Origin: a virus | Taxonomy: Duplodnaviria; Caudoviricetes | Length of the DNA stretch: 64,000 nucleotides | IMG/VR virus record: IMGVR_UViG_3300005080_000001 | Span: 32,001-96,000 of that record | Strand: one strand, 5' to 3' | Part shown: in pieces, positions 242-63,181 of the stretch | Layout: every line of letters starts with the position of its first letter | Position numbering within the stretch: the first letter of the stretch is position 1 | The notes under the pieces: generated by a model | Database searches by the model: none | Seen by the model: only the letters and a program-made list of their open reading frames with translations | Told to the model about the DNA's origin: nothing | Program-made: the position numbers and the translations under genes

Positions 242-991
242 ATGACATTATTAACAACTCAAAACGCAAAAACAATCAAAGGTGAGAAGAAAGGTTTTAA
301 CACTGGTATTGTTTACCTTGCACCATTCACAAACGGTGGAATGGCTAACTTATGTCCGATGGCTGAACAAGCACAATGTAACAAGGCTTGCTTATACACT
401 GCAGGACGTGGAGCATTTGACAACGTAAAGGCAGGACGTATTCGTAAAGCGGTTTACTTCCAAACAGATTACAACGGATTCATGAATGAACTGGCTTGGG
501 ACATCAACCGACATGTGAACAAATCTCGCAAGGCAGGTAGCACACCACTGATCCGTCTAAACGGGACATCTGACATTATTTGGGAACGAAAAGGATTTAC
601 TCTGGACGAGAAGCATGCTAAACGCATCAACAAACCTGCAGGCTACTACGAAAACATGATGGCTCTGTTCCCAGATGTACAGTTCTACGACTACACGAAA
701 ATTGCAGGTCGCTTCAATGGAAAACTACCTGCGAACTACGACTTAACATTCTCGTACAGTGGTGTTGAGGGCTACCAAAAACAAGTACAGCATGCAATGA
801 AGAAAGGCGCACGTATTGCGGTTGTGTTTCGTGACAGAGAAAAAATTCCTACGGAGTTTATGGGGATGGAATGTGTAGACGGTGACGACACGGATATCAG
901 ACACATTGAACCACAAGGCGTAGTGGTTGCGCTGTATGCAAAAGGTCAAGCGGTAAAAGATAAATCTGGCTTCGTTGTAGACATCGCTTAA
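242..991 (+). CDS. Phage Gp88-like protein (Cys-motif, radical-SAM-like)
   Basis: RBS GGAGAG; CPxAxxxxCxxxCLY, RLNGTSD, FYDYTK, LTFS and DGDxxDxR motifs match the phage gene-product-88 family as I recall it. Confidence 0.65.
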   Translation: MTLLTTQNAKTIKGEKKGFNTGIVYLAPFTNGGMANLCPMAEQAQCNKACLYTAGRGAFDNVKAGRIRKAVYFQTDYNGFMNELAWDINRHVNKSRKAGSTPLIRLNGTSDIIWERKGFTLDEKHAKRINKPAGYYENMMALFPDVQFYDYTKIAGRFNGKLPANYDLTFSYSGVEGYQKQVQHAMKKGARIAVVFRDREKIPTEFMGMECVDGDDTDIRHIEPQGVVVALYAKGQAVKDKSGFVVDIA

Positions 992-1090
992 ACAAAAGTA
1001 TTGCAATTTCTTGAGAGCGCTGATACGATGTTATTGGCGTTCGATTGGATTATTGCAATCCACAAAAAAAATAAAGGTAGGTCATTAAAC

Positions 1091-1657
1091 ATGAAAAACT
1101 TAAAAAAATTAATCGTAAATACTTTGGTAGTAGCAAGCGTGGCACTGTTGCCATCTGTAGCATTCGTAACGGCTTATGAAGGTCACCAAGAAAAGAAAAA
1201 AGTTCAAATCGTACAAGATGGCGACTTGATGGTCGTAAAGGATAGCGACAAAGAAAAATCTACGGTGGCTACACAAGTGAACGTGGTAGACAAGGAAGGC
1301 AATGTGGAAGTAACAAACCTGTTCGACAAGGACGACACGTTCACTCTCGACAAGTCAGAGGTGAAAGAAAAATTACGCAAAGGTGACAACGTCTATGTGA
1401 CTTTCAAAGGTGACTGGGTAGAGAGTGAGAAAAAATTCAACACGGATGACGTGGCATTCTCGGTAGAAAAAAATCACACAACGTTCGTCACTGTCCAATC
1501 GGTGAGCGACAAGGATGCGTTTGCACTAGATATGACAGACCCTCACAGCAGTGAGTACGCTCTTGACCCAACTGGGCTAAAGGTAGGCGACATCTTGGAA
1601 CTGAAAGAAAATAAGTACGGAGAGGTGCTTGAGCAACACGTAGTAGCACCTCAGTAA
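1091..1657 (+). CDS. Secreted/membrane-anchored hypothetical protein
   Basis: RBS AAGGTAGG before ATG 1091; basic N-terminus and hydrophobic signal/anchor. Confidence 0.7.
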   Translation: MKNLKKLIVNTLVVASVALLPSVAFVTAYEGHQEKKKVQIVQDGDLMVVKDSDKEKSTVATQVNVVDKEGNVEVTNLFDKDDTFTLDKSEVKEKLRKGDNVYVTFKGDWVESEKKFNTDDVAFSVEKNHTTFVTVQSVSDKDAFALDMTDPHSSEYALDPTGLKVGDILELKENKYGEVLEQHVVAPQ

Positions 1658-1727
1658 TAAGCGAAAAATTTACAGGCAAAGAAATGTTTTAAGGCAAACC
1701 AAAAAAAATAAAGGTAGGTAATTTAAA

Positions 1728-2297
1728 ATGACAAACTTAACAGCAAACACAACGGTAGCAGTGGATGAATTAACAGTGGCGGTAGAAGAGAAAAAATATT
1801 GGCTAGTAGATTTACAAGACCACGAGAACACTCGTGAGTCTACGCTTGATGATGCAAAAGAATTTTTGAAAGGTCACTTCGATGAAGAGGATTACGATGT
1901 ATGCGATGACTGCGAGGACTTCGATAAAACTAGCGAGGAGTTAATGGACGAACACTTCGAGCAAATTGACAACGCTGACTTTGACGAACTGCACGAATTT
2001 CTTAGTTGCATCGGTTGGACAATCTTCGAAGACAAAGAAGAACTTCGTGAACATGTGGAGTGGGAAGCGCTGAAATGGAGCGTTGAGAAGGCGCTGAAAA
2101 AAGAAGGTTACGACCACATGCTTTGCACAAGTGGCTTGATAGAAGATACTTTGCTCTGGTATGCAGTCAAGGACAATGAAAAATTAACAGTGAGAGTAGT
2201 ATTCACAGAAGGTGAAGAGGCAGGGAAAATTTCCATCGAGGACACGATAGAAGGCAAAGAGGATTGGGTGTTCAGAAAGAATACGAATACCCTTTAA
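1728..2297 (+). CDS. Acidic hypothetical protein
   Basis: ORF with RBS; very D/E rich; CxxC. Confidence 0.75.
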   Translation: MTNLTANTTVAVDELTVAVEEKKYWLVDLQDHENTRESTLDDAKEFLKGHFDEEDYDVCDDCEDFDKTSEELMDEHFEQIDNADFDELHEFLSCIGWTIFEDKEELREHVEWEALKWSVEKALKKEGYDHMLCTSGLIEDTLLWYAVKDNEKLTVRVVFTEGEEAGKISIEDTIEGKEDWVFRKNTNTL

Positions 2298-2357
2298 GCG
2301 AAAAAAATTAGGCAAAGAAATGTTCTGAGTTAGACCAAAAAAACAATTAAGGGAGTT

Positions 2358-2645
2358 TTGAAAATGATAGCAAGTTTACCAGATGTAAAAAAATCTTTGA
2401 AGGGAAAAGCAAAGAAGGGACACCTAATTGCTAAAATCCACGTTGGTATTCAAGAATTTGGCGAAGGGTTTGACGTTTGTGTGGATGCTTGGATGTTTGA
2501 TAAATGGATGAATGATGATTTTGAAAGCTACCAGATGTCAGAGGAAGAAAAGTTTCCAAAGGCAGAGGCAAGAGCAAAAAGAATTGCAGAGTCATTGGTG
2601 AGTGCAGGATACAAAGCAAAATATACTGGCTTAGAAAATTGTTAG
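2358..2645 (+). CDS. Hypothetical protein
   Basis: ORF after repeat B with GGGAG RBS. Confidence 0.7.
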   Translation: MKMIASLPDVKKSLKGKAKKGHLIAKIHVGIQEFGEGFDVCVDAWMFDKWMNDDFESYQMSEEEKFPKAEARAKRIAESLVSAGYKAKYTGLENC

Positions 2646-2657
2646 GAGGAAAAGAAA

Positions 2658-2750
2658 ATGGTGAAAGAATTCGTTGGTGTAGGTGTTGTCATAGCTTTTC
2701 TGTACGGTGTTATGTGTCTTCTCTCTCTGGGTATCACAGCTAGTATGTAA
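2658..2750 (+). CDS. Small single-TM peptide (30 aa), not in ORF track
   Basis: AGGAGG RBS; MVKEFVGVGVVIAFLYGVMCLLSLGITASM; followed by repeat B. Confidence 0.6.
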   Translation: MVKEFVGVGVVIAFLYGVMCLLSLGITASM

Positions 2751-2820
2751 AGCGAAAATTTTACAGGTCAAGAAATGTTTTAATGTCTAAACTAAAAAAA
2801 ATACTGGAGCGTGTTCAAAA

Positions 2821-3795
2821 ATGAAAATTGTAAAATCTATCGTAAATGCATTAACAAAGGCAGAAGCAAAAAGAGGCGTAGCAAGTGTGGCAACTGTTCG
2901 CCAAGATACAGTAAGAAAAGCAATTGAGCGTGGAGAGTTCGAAAAAATAAAATGTGCATACAGCATGACTGATGACTACGCTTGGGATGCTGTAAACAAT
3001 AACGGTTGGAAAGATAATGTAGGTCAAGAAACAATGGCAAGAGAATACAGCATCTTAACGCCTAGCTGTTGGGTGTCACCAAAAAAATTCATCATCAATG
3101 GGATTGAGTGCTACGAAATTAGTATCAGCTTCCATAGTAATCTAGCGTATGACATGTATGTCCCAGTTGACGGAAAAAAATCTGAGCCAGTAGTGAAAGA
3201 GGAGGAGAAGAAAGTGGAAGCTGTAAAAGAAGTAGAGCAAGTTGAGGTGGTTGAAGAAAAAAATTACATCGTCATGAATGCCCAAGATACTTGCGATTGG
3301 TCTGAGGGCAACATTGAGCATGTAAGGCAAGTTGTGCTAGACAATTGGGATAAGGTTGAATGCGATACTCTTGAAGAGTACGATGCACTGCTAAAACATA
3401 TTCCAACTGCTGACATTGACGACTTGGATTTGGAAATGTGTCTAGAACAAATTGAACACAGAGTGTTCTGTAGCTACGAAGAAATGCTTGATTGGCGCAG
3501 AGAGTTAGGGATGGAAGTAGATGAAGACGAAGAACCAGAAGAAAATAAATGTACCTTCTGCGGTAAAACTGATACTTGTGATACAAAAAATGTAGGTGGC
3601 TATGAGGTTTTAGAATCCTGCACAGACTGCGAGAAAGAAATTTTGGAAGGCAATGAAGAAGATGAAGTGCCAGAAGAACTCTACCTGTGCAATGGTTGCG
3701 ATGAAATGTATCACGAAGAAATGTCAGAGGGTGAATGTTGTGAAGGAAAAGATTTTAGAATCGTAAGCAAAGGCGACATGGGATTCCACGATTGA
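2821..3795 (+). CDS. Hypothetical protein with acidic, Cys-rich C-terminus
   Basis: ORF with GGAG RBS; several CxxC pairs. Confidence 0.75.
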   Translation: MKIVKSIVNALTKAEAKRGVASVATVRQDTVRKAIERGEFEKIKCAYSMTDDYAWDAVNNNGWKDNVGQETMAREYSILTPSCWVSPKKFIINGIECYEISISFHSNLAYDMYVPVDGKKSEPVVKEEEKKVEAVKEVEQVEVVEEKNYIVMNAQDTCDWSEGNIEHVRQVVLDNWDKVECDTLEEYDALLKHIPTADIDDLDLEMCLEQIEHRVFCSYEEMLDWRRELGMEVDEDEEPEENKCTFCGKTDTCDTKNVGGYEVLESCTDCEKEILEGNEEDEVPEELYLCNGCDEMYHEEMSEGECCEGKDFRIVSKGDMGFHD

Positions 3796-3888
3796 GCCGT
3801 GGCATCCTTCATTAGTTAAAGCAAAAATTTACTGATCAAGAAATGTTTTAAGGCAAGACAAAAATAAAAATTAAGGGAGTTTTGAAAA

Positions 3889-4269
3889 ATGTTAAACAAT
3901 GTATCTCGTACTGTTGGTGAAGAATTACTAAGCCGTATGCAAGGAAATGACGTTGTGGGAGTGCTAAGAATGGACTTAGTTCACTCATACAATCATGATA
4001 TGGAGCAGGTAAAAAAAATGTCTGACGATGAGGTTTGCTCATTAATGGACAGATATGAAGCAATGGAAAAAGGTTACGATGATGAATTCGATGAAGGAAA
4101 ACTTCCGCATCATATCGCTCATGTGAAATGTGAATGTAGTGCAGAATTGGTAGTTGTACACGTAGATTGTGAGACTCGTGGAGATTGTGAAATATATGTC
4201 TGCGAGTGTAAAAATCCTGCGTGTGATAAGGAGACATCAATGTGTTATGCGGAAGAATGGTATGAGTAA
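3889..4269 (+). CDS. Hypothetical Cys-rich acidic protein
   Basis: ORF between two B repeats; GGGAG RBS. Confidence 0.7.
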   Translation: MLNNVSRTVGEELLSRMQGNDVVGVLRMDLVHSYNHDMEQVKKMSDDEVCSLMDRYEAMEKGYDDEFDEGKLPHHIAHVKCECSAELVVVHVDCETRGDCEIYVCECKNPACDKETSMCYAEEWYE

Positions 4270-4337
4270 GCGAAAAAAACTATGCCAAGAAATGTTTTAA
4301 TGTCTTTTTGAAAATAAAAATTAAGGGAGTTTTAAAA

Positions 4338-4511
4338 ATGAATAAAGAACTTATGGAAAAAGCAATTAAAGCGATTGGGCAATTAGTAAATGAAGCGCAC
4401 AATGTAGACTGTGAAGAAAAGGACAATGCAGTCAAAGAAGGTTGGGAAGTACTTGAGCAACTAATCAAGAGTGAAGGCACTGACAAATTTAAATTCTGGA
4501 TTGAACAATAA
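4338..4511 (+). CDS. Hypothetical protein
   Basis: RBS AAGGGAG before ATG 4338. Confidence 0.65.
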   Translation: MNKELMEKAIKAIGQLVNEAHNVDCEEKDNAVKEGWEVLEQLIKSEGTDKFKFWIEQ

Positions 4512-4539
4512 AAAAACTTTATGAAGGCAGGTAATTAAC

Positions 4540-4848
4540 ATGGAAAAAACTTTTCAGCAAGAACTTGAGGAACTAATTGCAAAGCATGCTATTCGCCAAG
4601 AGGACACAGGCTCTGGCTACTTAGTTGAATTAAAAAATAATGAGTGTATCCAAATTGATTTAATCAATGAATCTAACGAGTTAGAAAGATTCGAGGAAGA
4701 AGGCGAAGAGAAAGACGAATGGGTTTATGTCTGTGCCGACTGCCTAGAGTCACACGATGAAGAAGTGGAGAAATGCTTTGGATGCGGTAGTGATTCAATA
4801 TCTAGCATGACAAAAAGCGATGAACAGTTGTTCAAGTACGGTAAATAA
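4540..4848 (+). CDS. Acidic Zn-ribbon-like hypothetical protein
   Basis: CxxC...CxxC; RBS present. Confidence 0.65.
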   Translation: MEKTFQQELEELIAKHAIRQEDTGSGYLVELKNNECIQIDLINESNELERFEEEGEEKDEWVYVCADCLESHDEEVEKCFGCGSDSISSMTKSDEQLFKYGK

Positions 4849-4933
4849 TAGCGAAAAAAAAATATAGTCAGCCTATTAATTTTATAGGTTGACTTCAATA
4901 CTATTACAGTGATAAAGTAAAGGGGAAATAAAA

Positions 4934-5176
4934 ATGATTAGATTATTAATGGATTGGTTAGAAGATGGAGTAAGCAAGGAAAAAATTACAGGGTATGCGT
5001 TATTATTCAAGAAGCAAGTGTCATGCGAAATGAACCTAAACAGCAAGCTGAGACTGTATTCAGCATTTATTGAGCATGTTTCACTAGGACAAGCAGAACT
5101 TCATGTAGTAATCCAAGAAACAGAAGTTTTAATACATCACGAGGGAAGAATGATTAAGCGCTTATTGAGTATCTAA
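4934..5176 (+). CDS. Hypothetical protein
   Basis: ORF with AGGGG RBS. Confidence 0.6.
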   Translation: MIRLLMDWLEDGVSKEKITGYALLFKKQVSCEMNLNSKLRLYSAFIEHVSLGQAELHVVIQETEVLIHHEGRMIKRLLSI

Positions 5177-5228
5177 AGGGAAAAATTTTATGATCAAGAA
5201 ATGTTTTAAGGTAAAGGGGAGAAAGAGT

Positions 5229-5453
5229 ATGGCAGTCAACTATAAAGATAAGTTCGTAGGAATAAAAATTTATGGCTTTTGCAATGGCTATTTTGGTAGA
5301 GACGATTATGATGATAAAGTTATTATTGCAAGTGGTAATGATTGGATTGTAGGAGTAGATAACCAAGGAATAAATTGCTTTGCATCGTTCCGAGGGGAAG
5401 AGGATAGCATGGAAGAACTGATAGGCAAGTGGAGTAAAGAAGAAGATTGTTAA
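5229..5453 (+). CDS. Hypothetical phage protein
   Basis: ORF after repeat B; GFCNGYFGRD motif. Confidence 0.65.
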   Translation: MAVNYKDKFVGIKIYGFCNGYFGRDDYDDKVIIASGNDWIVGVDNQGINCFASFRGEEDSMEELIGKWSKEEDC

Positions 5454-5496
5454 TACTTGCTCTGGTAACTAAAAAAATATGAATGGAGAGATTGAT

Positions 5497-5883
5497 ATGT
5501 TAAAAATTCAATGTACTGCATGCGATGGTTTTGGGAATCAAAAATTTATTGAGGGTGAAGGATGGGTTTGTCAGTGTAAAGAATGTGACGGAGGAGATAA
5601 AGTTGCTCCAGAAGATATGAAAGTATATGTAACTGTATACAAGGTTACTAGAGAGTTTGGAGGACATGAGGAAGGCGGTTGGTGGTTTAACTGGTACACA
5701 TGCCTTGAGACAATCCCATGTAAAAATAAATTTTCAGATGAAATTAAAGCTGATTTGTTAGAAGAGTATAAGGGTATGAAGCACGGAGATATCTATTCTG
5801 TGCTAGGTGGCGCTGATGTACAAGTATGGATTGAGCGTAGACCTGCAGAGAATGAGACAAAAGAAAAACCTATGTATGAATAA
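5497..5883 (+). CDS. Hypothetical protein with CxxC pairs and GGHEEGGWW motif
   Basis: GGAGAG RBS; ORF track. Confidence 0.7.
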   Translation: MLKIQCTACDGFGNQKFIEGEGWVCQCKECDGGDKVAPEDMKVYVTVYKVTREFGGHEEGGWWFNWYTCLETIPCKNKFSDEIKADLLEEYKGMKHGDIYSVLGGADVQVWIERRPAENETKEKPMYE

Positions 5884-5907
5884 GCGGAGGGCTTCGGCTC
5901 TCCTTTA
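5884..5907 (+). terminator. Probable intrinsic terminator
   Basis: GGAGGGC-TTCG-GCTCTCC hairpin followed by TTT. Confidence 0.55.
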
Positions 5908-5977
5908 AGCAAAAATTTTATGATCAAGAAATGTTTTAATGTCTTTTTCAAAAATAAATATGGGGGCATGTTGAGAA

Positions 5978-7948: not shown

Positions 7949-8035
7949 CTGTCAGTAATCTTCCTCTATTAAGCAAAAGTATTGCTAAAAATAGAGGGCG
8001 GTGATATAATTACCAGTAGTAAAACAGGAAGTTAG

Positions 8036-8408: not shown

Positions 8409-8591
8409 ATGGCAACTATGACAGGAAGAGAATTAGCAAAAGAAATTCAATCAGTAGACAAAGGGTTTAAAGCACCACACATGTCCCGTGCAGAGTACAA
8501 CAATATGATGTATGGCGTGGGCAAAACGAAGGAAGACTTTGATAAATATTGTGAGGAAATGAGTGGAGAAGTAAAGACTTACAAACTCTAA
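8409..8591 (+). CDS. Small hypothetical protein
   Basis: GGAGG RBS; ends SGEVKTYKL. Confidence 0.65.
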   Translation: MATMTGRELAKEIQSVDKGFKAPHMSRAEYNNMMYGVGKTKEDFDKYCEEMSGEVKTYKL

Positions 8592-8722
8592 TCAAAGCAA
8601 AAGTATTGCAAAATATTTCGAGGTTAGATGGCTTAACCTTTTTTATTGACCATCTAACCTCAATACTGTTACACTATTGAAGAAATACATATGAAAAGAA
8701 TTCATTCAATGGGGGAACAGGT

Positions 8723-11439: not shown

Positions 11440-12381
11440 ATGGCAGATATTAAAAAGCTTGAAGATAAAGTGGTAAATGCAGAAGCAAAGGTTGAAAAGT
11501 GTAAAGGTACAATTGAAAGACATAAGAAGCAACTTGATAAGAAGATACAAAAGGTAATCAAGGAAGTAGGCTTGGACTTAACTGGTAAAAGTAAGGAAGA
11601 GATTGACGAACTTCGTGAGCCTTATAGAACAACAGAGCATTCTTGGACGATTTATGAAGTAGTTAATAAGCTTGATGATATTAAAGGTGCTGAGAAGAAG
11701 CTAGGTGAAGCTGAACATATTCTTGCAAACTGGAGAGAGAAACTTGATATCGAGGTTAACCGTGAAAAGTTCATTCAAGAGAACGCTCCAAAGGTGATCG
11801 TGGAATTCTTAGAAGAGTGGAAGAAGTTAGCATACGAGTGGTATATTAAACGATACAATGATTATCAAGAATTTAAGAATAAGCTGAGAGTAAAACATGA
11901 TAAAGAGATTATATCGTTTGTAAAATCCCATCCAGAAGATTTTGAAAGATACTTGGAAGACGGAGAGATTGCAAGTTACTGGGCGAACAGCCTAGGTAAT
12001 ATCCATGGAGCAGGATTGAAAAAGCATATGGAAGAGAAGGGCTTAGATTATAGCAGTATGAATGAGAAGAAGGCTAACTTCGCAGGTGGAGCAGTAATGT
12101 ACATGGATAGCATCTACGATGAAGAGAAACGACTAGTATGGCTAGAGGATACACTTGAGCAAGAGAGAAAGGCAAAACTATTAGACCTAATCTTCCGTAT
12201 CAGCAAAGTAGTTGGGGAGATTGAAGATGCTACATACCTAAAAATAAATGAGAAGGGTAATCTTGACGGGTTTGTAATTGGTGACAAAGGAAAGGCTCGT
12301 GTCGAAACAATTGGAGCAGGCGGTTGGAATATCCAGTGTTGGCACTACAGAACATTAGTAAAACCAGTTAAAGAGGCATAA
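11440..12381 (+). CDS. Coiled-coil hypothetical phage protein
   Basis: Long ORF; C-terminal ETIGAGGWNIQCWHYRTLV. Confidence 0.8.
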   Translation: MADIKKLEDKVVNAEAKVEKCKGTIERHKKQLDKKIQKVIKEVGLDLTGKSKEEIDELREPYRTTEHSWTIYEVVNKLDDIKGAEKKLGEAEHILANWREKLDIEVNREKFIQENAPKVIVEFLEEWKKLAYEWYIKRYNDYQEFKNKLRVKHDKEIISFVKSHPEDFERYLEDGEIASYWANSLGNIHGAGLKKHMEEKGLDYSSMNEKKANFAGGAVMYMDSIYDEEKRLVWLEDTLEQERKAKLLDLIFRISKVVGEIEDATYLKINEKGNLDGFVIGDKGKARVETIGAGGWNIQCWHYRTLVKPVKEA

Positions 12382-12474
12382 GTAAGCGATGGGTGTTGAC
12401 TTTACCGACAGCACCCATTATATTTGAAATAATACTTCAATACTATTAAAGTAAAGAGGATGAGGAGAAGCGTT

Positions 12475-13257
12475 ATGAATATTGAACAGATTTTTATGGA
12501 TTGTCACGGGGCTATTTCCATGGCAGATGTAGTTTCACTTGAAGATATCTATTTTAGCAAATCACTGGTTGAGCAGTTTGGACTCCCAGAAAGTCCAGAT
12601 GAATTTGTAGATTATCTTGGAATTAATCTATCAGATGTTTACTTAAATGAAGGAAGCTTCTTTAATCGATTTTCATATGTGAAGGGCTTTGTAATGGTTG
12701 ATATTCCTTCATTTGAGTTAGAACACTTAAAGACATTTATGGTCAAGGAACGTATTGAATATATATCTGGTGTCATGAATAAGCTACTAGACGAAGGGAA
12801 GTGGGGTTCTATTTTCTCACTCATGGAAAAGAAGCTTTTACTCCCTAAGTTTGTGGAAATTTATCGTGAGATCCCAGAAGATAAGATTGTAGATATCTTC
12901 TCAGAATTATGGGTGCGATCAGAATTCGGATTTGATATGATTACCGAGGATATAATCAAATATGTATATAGCTTTAAAGAGCAATCAGAAAGCTACAGAG
13001 AACGCAGAGAGAGACTTTTGAAGCTGGCAGATAGTAATGGGTATCTAACTGTTTATCATGGTGATACAACAGAAGGAGTTAATGATGACTTATCATGGTC
13101 ACTAAGCGAAGAGACGGCTCAATGGTTTGCTAATCGATTCGATAACAATGGCGACATTATGAGTGCGAAAGTCTTAGTAGATGATGTTATTGATTACTTC
13201 GACTGGAGAGGCGAATCAGAGGTACTTATCTTTCCAAAGGATGTAAAACGTGAGTGA
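12475..13257 (+). CDS. Hypothetical protein with C-terminal ADP-ribosyltransferase-like motifs
   Basis: LTVYHG...LSWSLSEETAQWFA...GESEVL spacing resembles the R/H-S-ExE ART fold. Confidence 0.5.
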   Translation: MNIEQIFMDCHGAISMADVVSLEDIYFSKSLVEQFGLPESPDEFVDYLGINLSDVYLNEGSFFNRFSYVKGFVMVDIPSFELEHLKTFMVKERIEYISGVMNKLLDEGKWGSIFSLMEKKLLLPKFVEIYREIPEDKIVDIFSELWVRSEFGFDMITEDIIKYVYSFKEQSESYRERRERLLKLADSNGYLTVYHGDTTEGVNDDLSWSLSEETAQWFANRFDNNGDIMSAKVLVDDVIDYFDWRGESEVLIFPKDVKRE

Positions 13258-13356
13258 TTATCACGTTGGTAAATTATTCTTGACAAACACTTAATATCGA
13301 CCTATACTGACTTTACTGTATTTCTATACTAGTATTGAAGAAGAAGGGGATATTAA

Positions 13357-13605
13357 GTGTTCTATTTCCTTATGAATCCAAAAGGATATAAAAGCGGTTA
13401 TAGACAAAGTTTCAGTTATCAACCTAGCTTCCATCAGTGGTTGGAGTTTGCAAACCTATTTGTCTTTATGATGTGGATGGTTGATATATTATGTATGCTA
13501 TTTATGGTCAGTGGTTCTTTTAGAGCATTCTTGATATTGACTGTAGCGCAGATTGTAACTGGAGTTATATGTGCGTTCTTTGACCCAGAATATTACTACT
13601 GGTAG
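13357..13605 (+). CDS. Small two-TM membrane protein
   Basis: Two hydrophobic stretches; AAGGGG RBS. Confidence 0.6.
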   Translation: MFYFLMNPKGYKSGYRQSFSYQPSFHQWLEFANLFVFMMWMVDILCMLFMVSGSFRAFLILTVAQIVTGVICAFFDPEYYYW

Positions 13606-13682: not shown

Positions 13683-14702
13683 ATGTTAGCAATGAGCAAT
13701 AAGATTACTCATATCAATGAAGACCAATTGGAGGTAGCAGAGGTGTATGAATCATTTTTAACATCTAATGCACGTAATTCTGAAAAGACAGCAGTCGAAT
13801 ACCAAAATAGGGTAGAAGAGTTCTTTCGTATCGTAATTTCTAAGGACATTAAATTTGTAACACTGGAAGATATCCAGAAAATCAAACATAGCCACGTTAA
13901 GATGTATGTAGGAGAATTAACTGATCGTGGGAATTCAGATAAGACAATCTCATCAAAGTTGTATACGGTAAAGAGTTTCTATAACGAAATGCTAAAGAAT
14001 GAGTTAAAAGTTAACCCAACAATCTTTAAGATTAAGCTGAATATAGAAGAGAAGCACCATGAGGCACTTTCGTTTGAGGAACTAGATGAGTTGTATCGAT
14101 TTATGTTAGAAGATGAAAAAGAGAAGAACCTTGAGAAGTATTTGCTCCTTAAAACACTATTCACTACTGGCAATCGTAGAAGCGCAACGTTCAAAATGAC
14201 TTGGAAAGATAGCTTCATGCAGAAGAGAGATGTTAGTACTGGTCAACAGGTTTGGGTTATTAGAATTCAAGATAAAGGGAAGAAGTGGTCTGAGAAGCCA
14301 ATCCCAGATGAGTTCTATGAGGAACTACAACAATTGAATCAAGGTCAAGATAAAGTATTCTCAATGTCTCCTATAACTATTGAGAGGGCATTAGAGAGGT
14401 TTTCTGAGAAGTTAGGTAAGAAGATTACAATGCATTCAATGAAAGCTACGGGAGTAACCTTAGGATATCAATTAACAAAAGACATCAATCTTTGTAAGCA
14501 ATATGCTTCTCACGCTGATATATCAACTACGGCAATCTACCTAAGAGAAGAGAAGTCATATGTAAATCAGTTAAGTTATAACATGTCCAGAAAACTTGAT
14601 GAGTCTAAATTACTAAATATGTCTCGTGACGAATTAATTGAGTTCATCATGAATAAAGATAATACAGACATCAAGAATTCAATCCTCTTGAGATTGGGTT
14701 AA
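13683..14702 (+). CDS. Tyrosine recombinase/integrase-family protein (SPbeta YopP-like position)
   Basis: SAM-like N-domain; TGNR, HSMK (HxxR variant) and SHADISTTAIY motifs. Confidence 0.88.
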   Translation: MLAMSNKITHINEDQLEVAEVYESFLTSNARNSEKTAVEYQNRVEEFFRIVISKDIKFVTLEDIQKIKHSHVKMYVGELTDRGNSDKTISSKLYTVKSFYNEMLKNELKVNPTIFKIKLNIEEKHHEALSFEELDELYRFMLEDEKEKNLEKYLLLKTLFTTGNRRSATFKMTWKDSFMQKRDVSTGQQVWVIRIQDKGKKWSEKPIPDEFYEELQQLNQGQDKVFSMSPITIERALERFSEKLGKKITMHSMKATGVTLGYQLTKDINLCKQYASHADISTTAIYLREEKSYVNQLSYNMSRKLDESKLLNMSRDELIEFIMNKDNTDIKNSILLRLG

Positions 14703-14849
14703 ATCCTAATTTCAAGAGGTTCAAAAGTTTGTTAAACAAAAGTATTGACAATTATATTGTATTTAACTATACTTAGAGTATAAATAATTGTTGATTCGAA
14801 AGCTTATGTTTAAGCAAAAGTTTTGCATTTATTTTAAGGAGGCTACAAA

Positions 14850-15094: not shown

Positions 15095-15511
15095 ATGAGA
15101 GACATTCTAAATTTAAAGACTTTAAAACGTAGCAAATTACCAAAGCATAAAACAATTTATAAAAAGGCTCACCGATTAATAAATGAAGATTATGCAACTC
15201 CAGATTTAACTGACGAAGAGATTCTTGAGATTGCAAAAGATTTTCCAACATTATCAGTTAATATACTCGTTGGTGGGGATATTAGTATTAAGAGTATTGT
15301 CGACAGTTGGATCATTAGAGATGAGGGAAGATTCTATACTCTTTATCATAGTGCGATGGTATCTGACAATGGACGATACAAAGAGCGTTTTCATCTGCAA
15401 GATGTGTTTAAGGACTTAAACTATATTTTTGCAAGTGTCGTTAGCCATGATGATTTTGCAATGGGAATTCAGAGGCGAAATGAATACGATGTCTTGGATA
15501 TGATATCGTAA
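15095..15511 (+). CDS. Hypothetical protein
   Basis: GGGAG RBS; ORF. Confidence 0.7.
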   Translation: MRDILNLKTLKRSKLPKHKTIYKKAHRLINEDYATPDLTDEEILEIAKDFPTLSVNILVGGDISIKSIVDSWIIRDEGRFYTLYHSAMVSDNGRYKERFHLQDVFKDLNYIFASVVSHDDFAMGIQRRNEYDVLDMIS

Positions 15512-15727
15512 AAACGTTGATATAACAATATTTATGAAGGAGTTGACAAAAATGAGAAAGACAAGAAAAAAATAACAATTTATTAAAAAAAAGTGTTGCA
15601 ATTAACCATTTTATGTATTAATATTAGAGGCAGATAGGGAATACGAGTTGTCCAAAAAAGAATGACATACATAAGTAATTATAGAAAATATCATAGCAAA
15701 CTTATAATTCACAGGGGGAGATTTATA

Positions 15728-17044
15728 ATGACGACTAATATTAATTTTGAAAAGGTTGAAGAGGTATCTGCTAAACTTGATTCCACATTAAATGGGATCA
15801 GCCATATATCAGTATTAAAAGATAGGTTCGAAAATGCTTTGAATGAAGTAATTAGTTCTGATAAAGTTAAAGAAATTCTAGATAGTAAATCAATTAAAAA
15901 CTTAAATCCAGATGAGACAATATCTTTCTTTAGAGTTATATTTAATCAAATCAAAGACGAATCATTTAATCCAACTAATTTTATAATAGAAGAAAAACCT
16001 AAAACTATAAAGAAACCTAAAAATGAATCAGAAGCTGAAAAGAATAGATTAAAGAAACTAAAAGCAATTAATAACTCAAATGTATTTCATCCTAAATTTA
16101 AAGACAAATTCTTAGCTGAACATCGCAATGCTGATGGTAATCCATATGCTGATGAGACAAAAAGGGTAGCGGTTATCCTTTTTGGTAAAGTAGGCGTTAT
16201 TGAAAAACATTATAATAAAGATATCTATGACTTTAATGCAGACCAATTCGAAGAGGTTTTAGTATCTCTTAAGGCAAGTACAATTAGAAGCCTTCAAAAT
16301 TCTATCTCTACTTTAGAACAATATATAGACTTTGCAATTGCAAATGATAAAACTAAAAAAGGCAATGTAGCTACTCAATATAATAATAGGAAAGAAATAT
16401 CACAATTCTTAAATAAACAAGCAGAAGAGAATATGTTCTTCTCAAAACATGATATTAATACACTTGCTGAATATGCTGAAAATGCTCAAGATGGAGTAAT
16501 ACTTAACTTAATTTTTGATGGAATTAGCCATAAGAATAAATTTATTGAATTAATCAACCTTAAAATTGATGATGTAGACTTTGATAACATGGTTATTAAT
16601 GTACCAGAATTAACAGATACAGTAACTGGAGAGATTTTCCCTCCAAGACAAGTTCCTATGTCTGAGTCTACAGCTAGAACAATTAGACAGGCAATGAACT
16701 TTGAAGAGAAGTATGTGAGTCTTAATGGTAACTCTAGCCGTAGATATGCGATTGCTCAAAGTGAATATATCTTAAGAGGTCTTCGTAAGAACTACCAGAT
16801 TAAATGGGAAAATGTTAACCAAAGAATACTTCGTATCGCAAATATAAATGATGAAGAGTTTTTAAATGCAACTAATATTGCATATAGTGGTCAAGTTCAT
16901 TATGCTAAAGAGCAAATGCAAGCAGGTTACAGCATGGATGAAGCAATTAGATATGTTATTAATCGTTTTAATATGAGTGACAATACATCAACTTATTTCT
17001 ACATTAAGCATCGCCTAGAAACTGCAAATAAAGTGCTTTCTTAA
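15728..17044 (+). CDS. MrpR/YopR-like phage repressor (catalytically degenerate tyrosine-recombinase fold)
   Basis: KDIYDFN...STIRSL..SISTLEQYIDFAI and NAQDGVILNLIFDGI..ELINLK match SPbeta YopR/MrpR as recalled; catalytic R and HxxR absent; an Xre gene follows, as with yopR-yopS. Confidence 0.75.
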   Translation: MTTNINFEKVEEVSAKLDSTLNGISHISVLKDRFENALNEVISSDKVKEILDSKSIKNLNPDETISFFRVIFNQIKDESFNPTNFIIEEKPKTIKKPKNESEAEKNRLKKLKAINNSNVFHPKFKDKFLAEHRNADGNPYADETKRVAVILFGKVGVIEKHYNKDIYDFNADQFEEVLVSLKASTIRSLQNSISTLEQYIDFAIANDKTKKGNVATQYNNRKEISQFLNKQAEENMFFSKHDINTLAEYAENAQDGVILNLIFDGISHKNKFIELINLKIDDVDFDNMVINVPELTDTVTGEIFPPRQVPMSESTARTIRQAMNFEEKYVSLNGNSSRRYAIAQSEYILRGLRKNYQIKWENVNQRILRIANINDEEFLNATNIAYSGQVHYAKEQMQAGYSMDEAIRYVINRFNMSDNTSTYFYIKHRLETANKVLS

Positions 17045-18126: not shown

Positions 18127-18156
18127 TTAGCTTTACATATAAATAGCACTACACTT

Positions 18157-45308: not shown

Positions 45309-45342
45309 ATAAAACAAAAGTATTGCAATAAGGAGTGATATT

Positions 45343-47601: not shown

Positions 47602-50600
47602 TTGACAACAGTATCAATTAAAACATCAGATTTACCATCCAATGTATTTAGCGATATGTTCTACACGGCAATTCATTTACACACAGACTTATCAAACCAA
47701 AACATGGTTGAGGTAGTTAATACCTATAAGCAATATATCGACAAAGCAGTTGAAATGGGGCATAAAGCTATCGCCTTCACAGAACACGGTAATGTACTAA
47801 GTTGGTATAATAAGAAGAAGTATGCTGAGTCCAAAGGGTTAAAGTACATTCATGGTTGTGAAGTTTACGTAACACTGACTCTTGAAGAGAAGAAGCGCGA
47901 CAACTTCCATATGATCTTACTTGCCAAGAACCATGAAGGGTTCAAAGAATTAAACAAGATGGTATCAACTGGATTCGATAGAAAGGGCAACAACTTCTAT
48001 TACAATCCACGTATTTCATGGGAAGATATTCAGAACACATCTGACAATATTATCATTTCAACAGCTTGTTTGGGCGGTATTGTCTGGCAGTTACACATGA
48101 ACCGTGCAGGCAGTGTCTATTCAGAAAGGGAACTTGCAAAAGTTATTAAATGGTTTTCTGAGAACAAGCATCGTGTTTTCTTAGAAATTCAGCCTCATAG
48201 ACATCTTGAACAGATTCAATACAACAGATTATTGAAGAAGATTTCTGAACAGACTGGAATCCGCTTAGTAGCAGGATCTGACACACATGCTTTAAATGAA
48301 GAGTACGATAAGGCTCGTAAGGTACTTCAAAAGGCAAAACGTATTACATTCACGGATGAGGACAGTTTTGATTTAAGCTTCCATTCATATGAGAAGATGT
48401 TTAAAATGTTCCAAGCGCAATATACATTTACTGATGAAGAGATTCACCAAGCAATGCAAATGACAAACGTAATTGCAGATATGATTGAGCCATGGGACAT
48501 TGATTACAGTAAGAAGTATCCGCAGTTATACGATAATCCAGAGGAAGTATTCCAACAAAAGATTGCAGAAGGTATCAAGTATCGTGGATTGGATAAGAAG
48601 TCTTTAGAAGTAAGAAAGGCAAATGCAGAACGAATTCAGCATGAATATGAAGTATATAAAGCGAATGAAGCAATTAACTATCTTCTACTTGAGGATGCTG
48701 TTAAGTCATATGCACGTAGCCAAGGTGTACGATATGGATTTGGTCGTGGTTCGGTTTCTGGAAGCCAAATAGCTTATTTACTCCGCATAACTGAAATGAA
48801 TGCCATTGATAGAAACTTAAACTTTGCACGTTTCATGTCAAAAGAGCGTATTTCTCTTGCGGATATTGATACTGACTTCCCACCAAATAAGCGACATATT
48901 GTACAAGAATGGCTGTTAAATCATGAAAAGCTACACTGCGCTCACATTATCACCTATAATACAATTGCCCTCAAGGGATGTATCCGTGATGTTGGTCGAG
49001 GACTAGATATACCGTTAGATGTAGTAGATGAGATTGCAAAAGGTGTAGAGGATAACGAAATGTACTGGAGAGAACGTCATCCAGAACTATTCCATTATGT
49101 TGACCTTATTCAAGGAACAGTAGTTTCAATTGGCGCTCATGCTTGCGGTATTGCCGTATCTCCAATTCCATTGGATGAAAACATGGGTACAATTACTACA
49201 ATTGATGCAGAAACTAAGCAACCAGTTGTATTAACACAAATCAACATGAAAGAAATTGATGCTCAAAACTTCGTAAAACTTGATGTTCTAGGTCTTGATA
49301 CAGTTGAGTTAATTAGTGAAGCCGTTGATTTAGCAGGTTTAAAATGGGAAAGTATTCTTCCAGAAAACCTTGATTCAGAAGACAGCGCAGTATGGGAGAG
49401 TGTCCTAGATAACAATATTGGTATTTTCCAATGGGAATCAGACTTCGCTCATCAGATTTATAAAGACCTATTCAGCAAAGAAACGATTGAAAAGATTAAA
49501 CAGGTTCATCCTAAGTTCTCATATATGGACTTATTCTCGCTTGGTAATGCGATTATCCGTCCTGCAGGTGCTTCTTATCGTGATGATGTAGTACAAGGTA
49601 ACTTCTATGACAATGGTCACGAAGTATTAAATAAATTCCTTTCTCCTACACTTGGACGACTTGCTTATCAAGAGCAAATTATCGACTTCCTTGTACAGTT
49701 CTGTGGTTACACAGGCGGTGAAGCGGACGTAATTCGTAGATCGATAGGTAAAAAGGATCGTGAAACATTAGAGAGACTACTACCAGAGATTAAGCAACGA
49801 TTTATTGATACAATGATTGAGAAGTACGAGACTCGTAATGTAACGGCAGAGCAAATCTCTGAGCCTTTCATTCAAGTAATCCTTGATGCTAGTAACTACG
49901 GTTTCAGTATTAATCACTCAGATGCGTATAGTTGGTTAGGATATGCTTGTGCATGGTTACGTTATTACTATCCATTGGAGTTCATTACAGCCAATTTAAA
50001 CGTAAATATCAGTAAACAGGAGAAGACTGCTAAGTTAGTAGAATATATGAAGTCTAAAGGCATTACTCTAAACGGTATTAAATTCCGTTATTCAAGAGCA
50101 GGTTACATGTTTGATAAAGAAACAAACTCTATTTACCAAGGTGTCGAGCCTATTAAGTTCTTAAATGCTCAAGTAGCAGAAGGACTATATAGCTTAAGAG
50201 GTAACCATTATGCAAGCTTTACAGACTTATTGATTGATATTAAAGATGGTATTACCATTATGATTGATGGCGATCCAGAACGTGTTGCAAGAATCAGAGA
50301 TGTTTTCACGATCGATCATGAAGATTTTAATCCAAAAGTATTGCAAAAGTTAGAGAAGGATGGTAAGATAGAATACGTGGAAGATAGAAGCGTTACTATC
50401 AACTCCAGACAAATGAATATACTAATCTCTTTAGGATATTTCAGCGAATTTGGTGGCAACAAAAAACTTCTAAGAATCTTTGAATTCTTCGAGAAGAACT
50501 ACAAGAAGACACTTAAGCTGAAATCTAAAAAAGAACGTTATGCAAAAGTATTGCAATTTGAATTAGAACAAGTAGAGGAAAGTCTTTCATTGGTAGAACA

Positions 50601-51543: not shown

Positions 51544-51768
51544 TTGAAAAAACGTATTGAAAAGAAGTTTCTTAAGAAGAAGTATGGCAACGAGTATAAA
51601 AAGGGATATGGCGTAATCATAGGAAACGAGAACCGCTTTCACGGATTTAAAATAGGCGACATCGTTAAGATTGTAGGTACTGAGTACGGTACTTTGAAGT
51701 GTACTAAAAAAGATGGCGAACTCGAACTTATGCAGTACGTAGAACGCAAACATATTAAACAATTATAA
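51544..51768 (+). CDS. Small SH3-like hypothetical protein
   Basis: FKIGDIVKIV; AGGAGG RBS. Confidence 0.6.
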   Translation: MKKRIEKKFLKKKYGNEYKKGYGVIIGNENRFHGFKIGDIVKIVGTEYGTLKCTKKDGELELMQYVERKHIKQL

Positions 51769-51794
51769 AACAAAAGTATTGCAACGAGGAGCGA

Positions 51795-52070: not shown

Positions 52071-52649
52071 ATGACTAAACAGGTATATATCGCAGGAGAC
52101 ATGCTTCCGAAAGGTTCTCAAATGCTTCGTGCATTAGAGCGTGAACAAATCAAAGAGATTGGCTTAGATTTCTATAATCCAATGGATAATAAGGAAATCA
52201 ATTCGAAAGAAGAAGTAAGCAACGATGGACTAGCTGAACGAATTGTTAAAGCTGATACAGATGCAATTGAATCAAGTGATGTTATTGTAATCGAGCCACA
52301 ACCATTCGCTTTAGGAACAATGGTCGAACTTGGGCAGGTAAAAGGTCGCAAAGACCTTGCCAAACAAATAATCGCCATGGCTGACGATTTCAATGGTTCT
52401 GTCTCAGAATTACTAAACCAAATTATTGAATTAGCTGAACAAGTTGATAACCAAAAGGTATTTCCTCATTACGAAGATATTCGTAGATTCCCAAATGCAG
52501 GAGCAGATGAAGTAGGGGATCGTAGAAGCCTAGGAATCAACCAGTATGTATATGGCGTATGCTTAGACCTCACAGATGGCAAGGGCTTCTATGATTGGGA
52601 TGAAGTATTGGCAGAACTTAAGAAAATCAAGAATGACCCAACAATATAA
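52071..52649 (+). CDS. Nucleoside 2-deoxyribosyltransferase-like protein
   Basis: VYIAG, YNP, D..AIESSD, GTMVELG, NQYVYG. Confidence 0.8.
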   Translation: MTKQVYIAGDMLPKGSQMLRALEREQIKEIGLDFYNPMDNKEINSKEEVSNDGLAERIVKADTDAIESSDVIVIEPQPFALGTMVELGQVKGRKDLAKQIIAMADDFNGSVSELLNQIIELAEQVDNQKVFPHYEDIRRFPNAGADEVGDRRSLGINQYVYGVCLDLTDGKGFYDWDEVLAELKKIKNDPTI

Positions 52650-52717
52650 AACAAAAGTATTGCAATTAATATTTGTAGGTGCTACAATGTACCTACAAAT
52701 ATTATAGGGGTGAAAGT

Positions 52718-55688: not shown

Positions 55689-55802
55689 CATTAAACAAAA
55701 GTATTGACATTAATCTAGTCAATTGCTACAATGATAAAGTATTAAGTTAGGAATTTACTAAAAAATATACTTAAACAAAAGTATTGCATAGGAGGAAATG
55801 AA

Positions 55803-58088: not shown

Positions 58089-58199
58089 TTTAAAACAAAA
58101 GTATTGCAACTAAAATTAAAAGGTGGTATAATTGATTTTGTGAGGCACTAAATTTATTTATACCACTTAAAACAAAAGTATTGCAAAGAAGGCGAGAAA

Positions 58200-60672: not shown

Positions 60673-60782
60673 TTTAAAACAAAAGTATTGCAAAAATAAT
60701 CAAGCTATGCTATTATTAAGGGGTCGATAATTTTATATTATCACCTCTTAAACAAAAGTATTGCATATCGGAGGAATAAACA

Positions 60783-61241: not shown

Positions 61242-62281
61242 CAAAAACAAAACCTACATTGAAAGAATTAAGTGACAACATTAACAGCCGTATCAAGGGT
61301 GTCTCGGTTCACAAGGCTGTTAACTGGAATCGACAAGTAGACGGCTTTACATTAGCTTTCTGGGATCAAAACATCAAACAAATGTGGGTTGATACAGAAT
61401 TCGTACCTAGTAAAGACCGCAGTGTATGGGAGCGATTAGATCCAAAGGTACAAGAGGCTTATAAGAAAGTACTTGGTGGATTAACTCTATTAGATACGAA
61501 ACAGGGTACGATTGGAATGCCTAAGATTGCTGAACAAGTAGAGGAATTACAGCGTAAAGCGGTTCTATCATTCATGGGAATGATGGAGAATATCCACGCA
61601 AAATCTTATTCTACGATCTTCACAACCTTGTTAACTGAGGTTGAGATTGATGAAGTTTTTGATTGGGTAGAGCAAAACCAGTATTTACAATTCAAAGCAG
61701 ATCAAGTTACTTATTACTATGAAAATATTAAAGATGATAAGACTCTATATCTTGCTATGATGGCATCTGTTTTCCTAGAGTCATTCTTATTCTACAGTGG
61801 CTTCTTCTTACCTCTATACCTAGCAGGTCAAGGCAAAATGGTTGCAAGCGGAGAGATTATTAAGAAGATTATCATCGATGAATCCATTCATGGTGTATAC
61901 GTTGGATTACTTGCACAAGAACTATATGCAAAATTAACTCCAGAAGAGCAGGAAGAAGTAGATTACGAAACTGCTAGTCTAATGGACGAACTAATGGAGA
62001 ATGAGTTCAAATACACAGAAGAGGTTTACTCTGAGATTGAACTAGATCATGATGTTAAGAGTTTCCTATATTACAATGCTAATAAAGCACTTATGAACCT
62101 TGGCAAAGAGCCTAGATTCGAAGAAAAACGTATCAACCCAATCGTAGAGAACGGACTAAGCACTGAAACTGCTACACATGATTTCTTCTCTACTAAAGGA
62201 TCAAGCTATCAAAAGGCTAAACATCGTAGCTTAGTAGATGAGGACTTTGTATTCCCTAACATTGAAGAGCCATTAGTATAA
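61238..62281 (+). CDS. nrdF: Class Ib ribonucleotide reductase beta subunit
   Basis: GLTLLD, MENIHAKSY, LESFLFYSGF, DESIH, HDFFS. Confidence 0.97.
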   Translation: MTKTKPTLKELSDNINSRIKGVSVHKAVNWNRQVDGFTLAFWDQNIKQMWVDTEFVPSKDRSVWERLDPKVQEAYKKVLGGLTLLDTKQGTIGMPKIAEQVEELQRKAVLSFMGMMENIHAKSYSTIFTTLLTEVEIDEVFDWVEQNQYLQFKADQVTYYYENIKDDKTLYLAMMASVFLESFLFYSGFFLPLYLAGQGKMVASGEIIKKIIIDESIHGVYVGLLAQELYAKLTPEEQEEVDYETASLMDELMENEFKYTEEVYSEIELDHDVKSFLYYNANKALMNLGKEPRFEEKRINPIVENGLSTETATHDFFSTKGSSYQKAKHRSLVDEDFVFPNIEEPLV

Positions 62282-62329
62282 ACCAAAAGTATTGCAATAA
62301 ACTATAAAACGAAAAGAGGATTTCTTACT

Positions 62330-62656
62330 ATGCACACTCCTATGAAACTAATTAAATTCGAACAAACAAACTGTACTCCATGCAAAATGCTAGGAAACTA
62401 CTTACACAACGAACTTGGTGTAGAAGTAGATGAAGTAGTAAACATCTCAGAAGGAACAATTACTGATATGAAAACTGGAACTCTTGTTAATTCAGATGAT
62501 CCAGACCAAGCTATGGAATTAGCAGGTGAGTTCGGAATCATGAAGACTCCGACAATGGTATTAGTAGATGCAGACACTGGAGAAGAATTAGATCGTTTCT
62601 CTGGCGTAGGTCAAACTGGCGTTAATGCAATCTTAACAAAACGTGGTCTTATCTAA
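62330..62656 (+). CDS. Thioredoxin/NrdH-like redoxin
   Basis: CTPC motif; follows nrdF. Confidence 0.9.
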   Translation: MHTPMKLIKFEQTNCTPCKMLGNYLHNELGVEVDEVVNISEGTITDMKTGTLVNSDDPDQAMELAGEFGIMKTPTMVLVDADTGEELDRFSGVGQTGVNAILTKRGLI

Positions 62657-62714
62657 ATAAAAGGGGAGAGTTAATCTCCCCAATTACATACAAAAAAACT
62701 AGGAGACAATACGA

Positions 62715-63113
62715 ATGAATACTGACAAAACAATTTTAAATGATGCTAAAAAGAGAACACCGACTCAAAGAGACCGTTTATTAAGCATATTACGCAAAGC
62801 AGGAAGCAATGGCGTGTTAAATATAGATTTGGTTGGCGTTTGTATTGGATACCGTTCTAGAATAGCCGAGTTGTATCAAATGGGTTATAAAATTGATGTT
62901 GAAAATGTAGATAGAGGCGTATGTATTTATACGCTAAGAGAAGAGCCAGAAGTACCAATCACCAATGTACCAACGGCAATATCTGTTCTTACAAAAGAGA
63001 TCAGTGAGAAATATAAAGGTGCAATCACTCCAGAGGCACTAGTTGAATTGCTTCAAGACATGAATTTTAACGTTGTACGAAAAAGTGGCTCTCATAAAAC
63101 AGCGACAGCGTAA
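62715..63113 (+). CDS. Winged-HTH domain protein
   Basis: TQRDRLL..L...G...YRSRIAELYQMGYKI. Confidence 0.7.
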   Translation: MNTDKTILNDAKKRTPTQRDRLLSILRKAGSNGVLNIDLVGVCIGYRSRIAELYQMGYKIDVENVDRGVCIYTLREEPEVPITNVPTAISVLTKEISEKYKGAITPEALVELLQDMNFNVVRKSGSHKTATA

Positions 63114-63181
63114 TAATAAATGAATTAAATCACTAACACAAATAAAGCAAATGTATTGCAAATAATAGGAGGCAATTAATA

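Follow-up and report, generated by a model that had tools for sequence, protein, structure and literature searches.

A dispersed, gene-oriented sequence word in a 132.5-kb phage genome is the probable operator of a predicted MrpR/SroF-type lysogeny repressor

The 64,000 nucleotides analysed here (the window) are bases 32001–96000 of one 132,518-bp virus record, IMGVR_UViG_3300005080_000001 (Duplodnaviria; Caudoviricetes), and all coordinates are those of the window unless marked as genome coordinates. This SPbeta-like, Bacillus-type phage carries a short asymmetric word, written TTAAACAAAAGTATTGCAA on the + strand of the window, in dozens of copies. From sequence comparison it seems likely that a master lysogeny repressor uses the word, with its conserved block (T)TAAACAAAAGTATTGCA(A), as a dispersed operator that would be the counterpart of the SPBRE element of phage SPbeta, the predicted reader being the protein encoded at 15728–17044.

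Sites in the window were counted with up to two mismatches to AAACAAAAGTATTG, and dinucleotide-preserving shuffles provided the background for the exact pattern AARCAAAWGTATTG. The exact pattern is found 32 times in the window, on the + strand only, compared with a shuffle expectation of 0.01, and the near-exact copies number 39 on the + strand and one (18283) on the − strand. In the full 132.5-kb genome the word occurs 69 times, with 45 occurrences on + and 24 on −. The minus-strand copies lie in the leftward gene blocks (genome 1–22 kb and 104–132 kb), the strand of the word flipping with that of the genes. Although 83% of the genome is coding, 60 of the 69 copies are intergenic, and in 62 of the 69 the word points in the direction of the gene ahead. 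Most of the exceptions could be traced to doubtful small open reading frame (ORF) calls; the real ones are at genome 22179/22201 (−), genome 25887 (+) and window 18283 (−). The conserved block measures 17–19 bp, several of its positions being 97–100% conserved.

An earlier note, made from the letters of the window, had described this oriented repeat as a network. Its copy number is real and every coordinate it listed carries a copy, and the comparison of orientation with transcription over the whole genome, which it had proposed, came out in its favour, the strand following the leftward arms. Its statement that all copies lie on the coding strand has to be relaxed to 62 of 69 genome-wide, with the copy at 18283 inverted. 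Its reading that the network silences the lytic replication region is not supported in that form, since the network spans the whole genome, with the structural arms and a sigma-like regulator. Overall, the interpretation given in that note is partly supported.

The copies occur in two main contexts. Class 1 comprises 19 of the 69 copies, in which at least five of the six bases of TATAAT are matched precisely 17 bp past TTGCAA or TTGACA; the word here extends over the -35 hexamer and a further 11 bp on its upstream side. When other spacings from 5 to 40 were tested for a TATAAT-like box, each gave 0–3 matches, with the exception of spacing 22 (n = 6). A generic promoter scan was overall no better than shuffles, so that it is the exact 17-bp spacing that supports class 1. 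The class 1 promoters are strong and of the sigmaA type that the earlier note had named, and those at 30554, 43805 and 58104 have a perfect TTGCAA-17-TATAAT. Class 2 comprises 22 of the 69 copies, which lack a -10 box. Their word ends 10–26 nt from a start codon with the Shine-Dalgarno sequence in between, and often begins within the TAA stop codon of the preceding gene, in agreement with the placement after stop codons or before ribosome-binding sites (RBSs) proposed earlier. No conserved second element was found after the class 2 copies. Fourteen of them lie downstream of a class 1 copy, the spacing having its mode at 78 bp, and the leader between paired copies frequently contains a hairpin ending at the second copy. 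All nine pairs listed in the earlier note exist, at 48–138 bp. The remaining copies are weaker promoters, copies 33–45 nt from a start codon, two lying within the DNA polymerase gene, one in the spacer of a promoter (20518) and a few degenerate matches. The genes of window 20001–60000 (40 kb, + strand) are co-oriented, and convincing intrinsic terminators among them number just two (47278 and 54076). The sites in the window are as follows.

990–1006 (+): copy from the TAA stop of ORF 242–991; weak -10 TACGAT after 17 bp
7971–7987 (+): class 1, TTGCTA-17-TATAAT
8595–8611 (+): solo copy right behind the stop of ORF 8409–8591
14734–14750 (+): class 1, TTGACA-17-TATACT; promoter of the operon whose last gene is the MrpR-like gene
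14812–14828 (+): class 2, GTTTTG variant; 78 bp past 14734, adjoins the RBS of ORF 14850
15585–15601 (+): degenerate copy AAAAAAAAGTGTTGCAA in TTGCAA-17-TAATAT, immediately 5' of the MrpR-like gene
18267–18283 (−): the only inverted copy of the window, GTTTTG variant; adjoins the -35 of the LexA-box promoter
20518–20534 (+): copy within the spacer of TTGTAA-18-TATGAT
22014–22030 (+): class 1, TTGCAA-17-TATTAT
23257–23273 (+): class 2, solo, adjoins an RBS
25476–25492 (+): class 2, solo; begins in the TAA of ORF 24071–25477
26707–26723 (+): class 1, TTGCAA-17-TAAAAT
28007–28023 (+): class 1, TTGCAA-17-TAGAAT
28145–28161 (+): partner 138 bp downstream of 28007, in the leader of ORF 28236
29515–29531 (+): copy ending ~40 nt ahead of the start of ORF 29573
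30543–30559 (+): class 1, perfect TTGCAA-17-TATAAT
30629–30645 (+): class 2 partner of 30543, at 86 bp; leader hairpin before the word
32994–33010 (+): class 1, TTGCAA-17-TATTAT
33096–33112 (+): class 2 partner of 32994, at 102 bp
36078–36094 (+): class 1, TTGACA-17-TATACT
36126–36142 (+): class 2 partner of 36078, at 48 bp
43314–43330 (+): class 2, solo
43794–43810 (+): class 1, perfect TTGCAA-17-TATAAT
45312–45328 (+): class 2, solo
47478–47494 (+): copy begun in a TAA stop; weak -10 TATCTT after 17 bp
47561–47577 (+): class 2 partner of 47478, at 83 bp; precedes the DNA polymerase gene
50330–50346 (+): co-oriented copy within the DNA polymerase gene, with 14 of the 17 bases retained
50540–50556 (+): second co-oriented copy within the DNA polymerase gene
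51768–51784 (+): class 2, solo
52649–52665 (+): class 1, TTGCAA-17-TACAAT
55693–55709 (+): class 1, TTGACA-17-TACAAT
55773–55789 (+): class 2 partner of 55693, at 80 bp; precedes the RecD2-like helicase gene
58093–58109 (+): class 1, perfect TTGCAA-17-TATAAT
58170–58186 (+): class 2 partner of 58093, at 77 bp; precedes nrdI/nrdE
60677–60693 (+): class 1, TTGCAA-17-TATTAT
60750–60766 (+): class 2 partner of 60677, at 73 bp
62281–62297 (+): copy across a stop codon, ending ~32 nt from the next start
63145–63161 (+): class 2, solo

Two copies stand out by their position. The one at genome 25887 (L151:5887–5903) is placed at the end of a rightward operon and faces a convergent gene, and neither a -10 box nor an RBS follows it; it seems to be the sole site where just a 'stop' role is available. 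The two co-oriented copies within the DNA polymerase III alpha-like gene (50330–50346 and 50540–50556) both keep CAAAAGTATTGCAA and lie 210 bp apart, which is too good for chance. We also tried a model in which the upstream flank of class 2 copies pairs with the Shine-Dalgarno sequence, the word forming the loop. It was rejected because there was no signal, the average pairing energies being -3.4 kcal/mol with the own flanks, -3.5 with swapped flanks and -3.8 with random flanks.

The candidate reader and a second recombinase-fold protein are encoded close together.

15728–17044 (+): MrpR/SroF-family recombinase-fold repressor candidate, 438 aa (Pfam, PDB sequence search, fold search)
13683–14702 (+): YopP-like protein with a tyrosine-recombinase fold, encoded upstream of the repressor operon, matched in Pfam by Phage_integrase and a SAM-like domain and 26% identical to SPbeta yopP

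The product of 15728–17044, whose start codon was chosen by its GGGGGAG Shine-Dalgarno sequence, is, in sequence as in fold, a member of the MrpR/SroF family, and the three kinds of search agree on the MrpR-type assignment that had been proposed from the letters. It matches the Pfam family MrpR_N_CB (PF22822) at 4e-15, and its protein cluster is precomputed with PF22822 and PF22823; a sequence search of the PDB returned YopR/MrpR at 2e-13 and phi3T SroF at 3e-9. Identity to YopR is ~24%, and relatives in the database carry the name 'phage lytic cycle repressor MrpR family'. The AlphaFold model has a pLDDT (predicted local distance difference test) of 84.6 and its top seven Foldseek matches are all SroF/YopR/MrpR, the best of them including the SroF-DNA complex 9rd5, SroF-Sar 9rgl, 8bj6 and 8a0a. 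The match to Phage_integrase in Pfam stays under the threshold (19.9 vs 27.1 bits), which may hint at the loss of recombinase catalytic residues that is a trait of MrpR/SroF repressors. The protein also has a disordered linker and an additional helical N-terminal domain of ~90 residues, which matched no known family.

All in one orientation, the YopP-like gene and two small ORFs are followed by the MrpR-like gene, in an sro-like operon layout; 15095–15511 encodes a 138-aa protein. The degenerate copy that the earlier note had placed at the promoter of the MrpR-like gene is present at 15585, in TTGCAA-17-TAATAT. The ORFs at 11440–13605, upstream of this operon, where an arbitrium module (AimR/AimP) would be expected in the MrpR/SroF systems, had no Pfam match, and no search was aimed at AimR. 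Further SPbeta homologues in the phage are YonN, YonF/G, YorI/J/L, NrdI/E/F and the tape measure protein, and tblastn with SPbeta proteins found no homologue of the YonO-type phage polymerase. Where SPbeta has YonO, this phage encodes a sigma-like protein at genome 17062–18102 (−) (L150), which matches phrog_5767 at 8e-37 and has a region-4-type helix-turn-helix (HTH) of the GerE kind (2e-7). The promoter of its operon (L150:18336–18371) contains two overlapping copies of the word, which span both the -35 and the -10.

We compared the genome with three related IMG/VR phages of 126–132 kb (G001, IMGVR_UViG_3300003973_000001; G002, IMGVR_UViG_2529292751_000001; and G003). These share ~70% nucleotide identity with it across 40–50% of the genome and carry 57–60 copies of the word each, with the pair spacing again peaking at 78 bp. 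At 60–75% of the orthologous junctions a site is kept in the three relatives. After the word had been masked, no other repeat common to this phage family was found. The sigma-like protein is conserved in the relatives, and both the YopP-like and the 138-aa proteins are kept in all three at 47–65% identity, at least equal to the conservation of the MrpR-like protein. More distant relatives have variant words in the same two contexts, namely AAAATAAAGTATTGCAA, where MrpR is 44% identical, and AAGCAAAAGTATTGACA, where it is 36% identical. In a Bacillus gaemokensis prophage, again with an MrpR of 44% identity, the word is AAACAAAACCATT and the RBS-adjacent copies lack TTGCAA. At the residues aligned to the DNA-reading helices of phi3T SroF, this prophage protein has ESIKN in place of ETKRV and INWRN in place of IKWEN. 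The word and the putative DNA-reading residues thus appear to change together among the relatives. Near-identical DNA was not found in the phage collection, nor did a single-protein scan of viral contigs find close relatives of the MrpR-like protein. The word was also examined as a mark of recombination or module boundaries, and this was rejected: word-bearing junctions and synteny breaks gave odds ratios of 0.74 (G001) and 0.61 (G003), which are not significant.

Consensus sigmaA promoters without the word cluster near the repressor operon, at 9381, 11344, 12396, 13280 and 13622, together with a promoter carrying a LexA-like box 1.2 kb downstream of the repressor gene.

18282–18339 (+): motif-less promoter TTGACA-18-TATAAT, then AGAAC-N4-GTTCT (LexA-box-like), from reading of the sequence

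Two ORFs follow the box (18405–18893 and 18865–19176), neither with a Pfam family and one of them acidic (isoelectric point 4.75); these are candidate genes for a Sar-like antirepressor under a candidate SOS promoter.

Several lines of evidence point to the MrpR-like protein as the probable reader. Binding of SPBRE by MrpR of SPbeta has been shown both in vivo and in vitro (PMC10516654), and SPBRE shows the same two contexts as the word described here. SroF of phi3T is a monomer that clamps an asymmetric box of 24–26 bp and is released by the LexA-controlled antirepressor Sar (bioRxiv 10.1101/2025.11.27.690993); both papers document repeated asymmetric elements bound by such proteins, and the earlier note had named a repeated element bound by SPbeta MrpR. 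In addition, the word is the only repeat common to the three relatives, the word and the putative reading residues have both changed in B. gaemokensis, the word-less consensus promoters cluster beside the repressor operon, and two copies overlap in the promoter of the sigma-like regulator.

By homology, one MrpR/SroF-type molecule would clamp one asymmetric site. At class 1 sites the bound protein would lie over the -35 and the adjoining 11 upstream bp and so shut out RNA polymerase by promoter occlusion. Class 2 sites may form a second barrier, lying between the transcription start, or the stop codon of the upstream gene, and the next RBS. They might act by cooperation with the promoter site ~78 bp upstream, or by blocking polymerases that arrive by read-through from other transcription units; intrinsic terminators are almost lacking on the + arm. 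As the LexA-box promoter suggests, an SOS-induced antirepressor could free all sites at once.

Several observations weigh against the assignment of the word to the MrpR-like protein. The 17-base core is identical between phages whose MrpR-like proteins share only 41–57% identity, a constancy that exceeds the usual stability of immunity specificities. Two of the relatives (G001 and G002) carry GTATTG (29–31 copies) beside GATTTG (14–18 copies), with no clear partition of the two forms by class or region. The conserved block of 17–19 bp is shorter than the 24–26 bp of the phi3T box, and the co-variation comprises a handful of relatives and an alignment to a structure of 20% identity. We know of no MrpR/SroF protein that halts an elongating polymerase, and the sigma-like protein encoded by the phage could itself read a promoter-like word.

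This last point leads to a different reading, in which the word is a phage-specific promoter element for the sigma-like protein (genome 17062–18102, −) or another phage factor, each copy starting or activating middle or late transcription 5' of an RBS and the class 1 copies being dual sigmaA/phage promoters. Dozens of oriented copies straight ahead of genes on both arms have the usual look of such a system, the sigma-like protein (phrog_5767, 8e-37) is conserved in the relatives, and in T4 late promoters one short element can suffice. However, class 1 copies already have near-consensus -35 and -10 hexamers at 17 bp and would not need an extra factor, class 2 copies have no conserved second element downstream, and with the word as their -35 transcription would begin past the start codon. 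Pairs 78 bp apart, and two overlapping copies at the sigma-like gene itself, would be redundant for promoters but are logical for operators, and it is in the TTGCAA part that the two classes of B. gaemokensis differ. We therefore regard a phage promoter as unlikely. It is also improbable that the word is an operator read by another phage protein, the YopP-like protein (13683–14702) or the 138-aa protein (15095–15511), with the MrpR-like protein binding something else. Conservation of both proteins across the three relatives is no lower than that of the MrpR-like one, and SroE is known as a second repressor of SPbeta-like phages (bioRxiv 10.1101/2025.11.27.690993). Yet no family-shared repeat remains as an operator for MrpR once the word is masked, the precedent in SPbeta gives the repeated element to MrpR (PMC10516654), and it is with MrpR residues that the co-variation is seen.

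An action in RNA, with the word lying 5' of the Shine-Dalgarno sequence as a site for a processing nuclease or for a translational regulator or enhancer, would agree with the strict co-orientation with transcription, with the placement 10–26 nt from start codons and with the 5' hairpin that leaders frequently have right ahead of the word. The class 1 copies, however, stand upstream of their own transcription start with the sequence unchanged, the word does not self-fold and an Rfam search of the window gave no match, so that such a role appears quite unlikely. Still less probable is an explanation without any dedicated protein, by which the word would be a UP-element-like A-tract joined to a -35 module that serves the host RNA polymerase and would have spread as promoter cassettes were duplicated, and class 2 would be decayed promoters. 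TTGCAA/TTGACA is indeed a -35 hexamer, and AAACAAAAG at -46 to -38 resembles the proximal UP subsite. On the other hand, conservation of the C, G and T positions at 97–100% goes far beyond the degeneracy of UP elements, the 22 copies without any -10 remain intact and are kept at orthologous junctions, word-less consensus promoters occur in the same genome, and word-bearing junctions are not enriched for synteny breaks.

Within the preferred reading, that of a dispersed repressor operator, the anatomy of the sites makes 'stoperator-like' a fair label. Roadblocking at the RBS-adjacent sites is something we infer, and auxiliary or cooperative operators would fit the non-promoter copies equally well as a block to elongation. 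The more specific proposal, that monomeric clamps at the roughly 25 RBS-adjacent sites act as orientation-dependent roadblocks insulating every cistron, with the N-terminal domain and the ~78-bp pairs adding cooperative promoter trapping, is offered tentatively, and we consider it rather doubtful. If true, a nearly terminator-free 130-kb prophage would have reinvented the stoperator strategy of mycobacteriophages by convergence, with a recombinase fold. The MrpR/SroF repressors, dead integrases that as monomers form a clamp on DNA, were described recently, and work on them has been confined to SPbeta and phi3T, each with ~10 sites. This phage and its relatives would present an MrpR-type switch enlarged about six-fold, with strict polarity and a preferred pair spacing. 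The array is a natural system for asking if such clamps stop elongating polymerase as mycobacteriophage stoperators do; as the relatives have variant words, the co-evolution of ~70 sites with one protein can therefore also be asked. In annotation, the word can serve as a marker of promoters and cistron boundaries throughout a family of ~125–145-kb Bacillaceae phages.

Some further elements were seen around the repressor operon and elsewhere. Inverted copies of the GTTTTG variant, which are nearly palindromic (CAAAA-N-TTTTG), adjoin the -35 TTGACA of word-less rightward promoters at two places, namely the promoter of the helicase operon (genome 22162–22201; L151:2162–2201) and the LexA-box promoter (18267–18283). 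The inverted copy at 18283 is followed by TTGCAT-17-ATTAAT and is aimed at a bidirectional terminator-like hairpin near 18150–18195; a leftward small RNA of ~90 nt at 18150–18240 (−) is possible. A palindromic element, TTCAATACT-N5-AGTATTGAA, occurs at nine sites in this genome (up to three mismatches) and at background level only in the relatives. Its sites, each of ~23 bp (4894, 6342, 8659, 9415, 11385, 12436, 13317, 13634, 47321 and 54123), lie across the spacer and -10 of motif-less consensus promoters or shortly past them, and it has AGTATTG in common with the main word. It was considered as the MrpR operator and ruled out, being confined to this genome, and it probably represents a separate regulon. 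Its likely reader is the product of the XRE-type HTH gene at 17339–17713, a neighbour of the repressor gene, because the three relatives lack both the gene and the palindrome. Two further k-mers, AAACATTTCT and AATGTTTTAA (1659–5965), have eight occurrences in the genome.

Comparison with known systems places the phage nearest to SPbeta and phi3T. The likeness to the MrpR/SroF systems lies in the family and fold of the protein and in the position of the repressor gene downstream of a YopP-like gene, and the promoter with a LexA-like box near the repressor gene may correspond to that of sar. Like SPBRE, the word is asymmetric, rich in A-tracts, dispersed over the genome, co-oriented with genes, and both promoter-embedded and RBS-adjacent. 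When we re-derived SPBRE from the SPbeta record, all 11 of its copies were co-oriented with their genes. At eight of them the element stretches from the -35 to the -10 of a promoter, and three lie directly 5' of the RBS of yonX, yopM and yopV. The dichotomy of promoter and RBS sites is therefore already present in SPbeta, at one-sixth the scale. The differences are the copy number (~69 vs 11), the share of non-promoter sites (22 of 69 vs 3 of 11), the stereotyped pairs ~78 bp apart, and the position of the word, which here occupies the -35 and adjacent upstream bases and not the spacer and -10. Unlike its SPbeta counterpart, the protein has the extra N-terminal helical domain of ~90 aa and shares only ~24% identity with YopR, and a sigma-like protein takes the place of a YonO homologue.

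In the literature searched, the stoperator idea was not found applied to SPbeta-like phages. The stoperators of Cluster A mycobacteriophages, read by gp71 in L5, are dozens of asymmetric sites for a monomeric repressor (PMC9283540, PMC6550527). Both arrays have about one site per 2 kb in one orientation relative to transcription, lie in short intergenic gaps and include sites overlapping the -35 of an early promoter, with a monomeric repressor as the reader, known or predicted. The likeness is one of analogy, as the candidate reader here is a recombinase clamp and not a two-domain HTH protein of the gp71 family, and the host is a Firmicute. The block to elongation has been shown for L5 and is putative here. 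A repeated early promoter followed by a leader hairpin, flanking many small genes, is also the layout of the PeSL cassettes of T4-type phages. Those cassettes are thought to drive the shuffling of modules, whereas the word-bearing junctions of this phage show no enrichment for synteny breaks.

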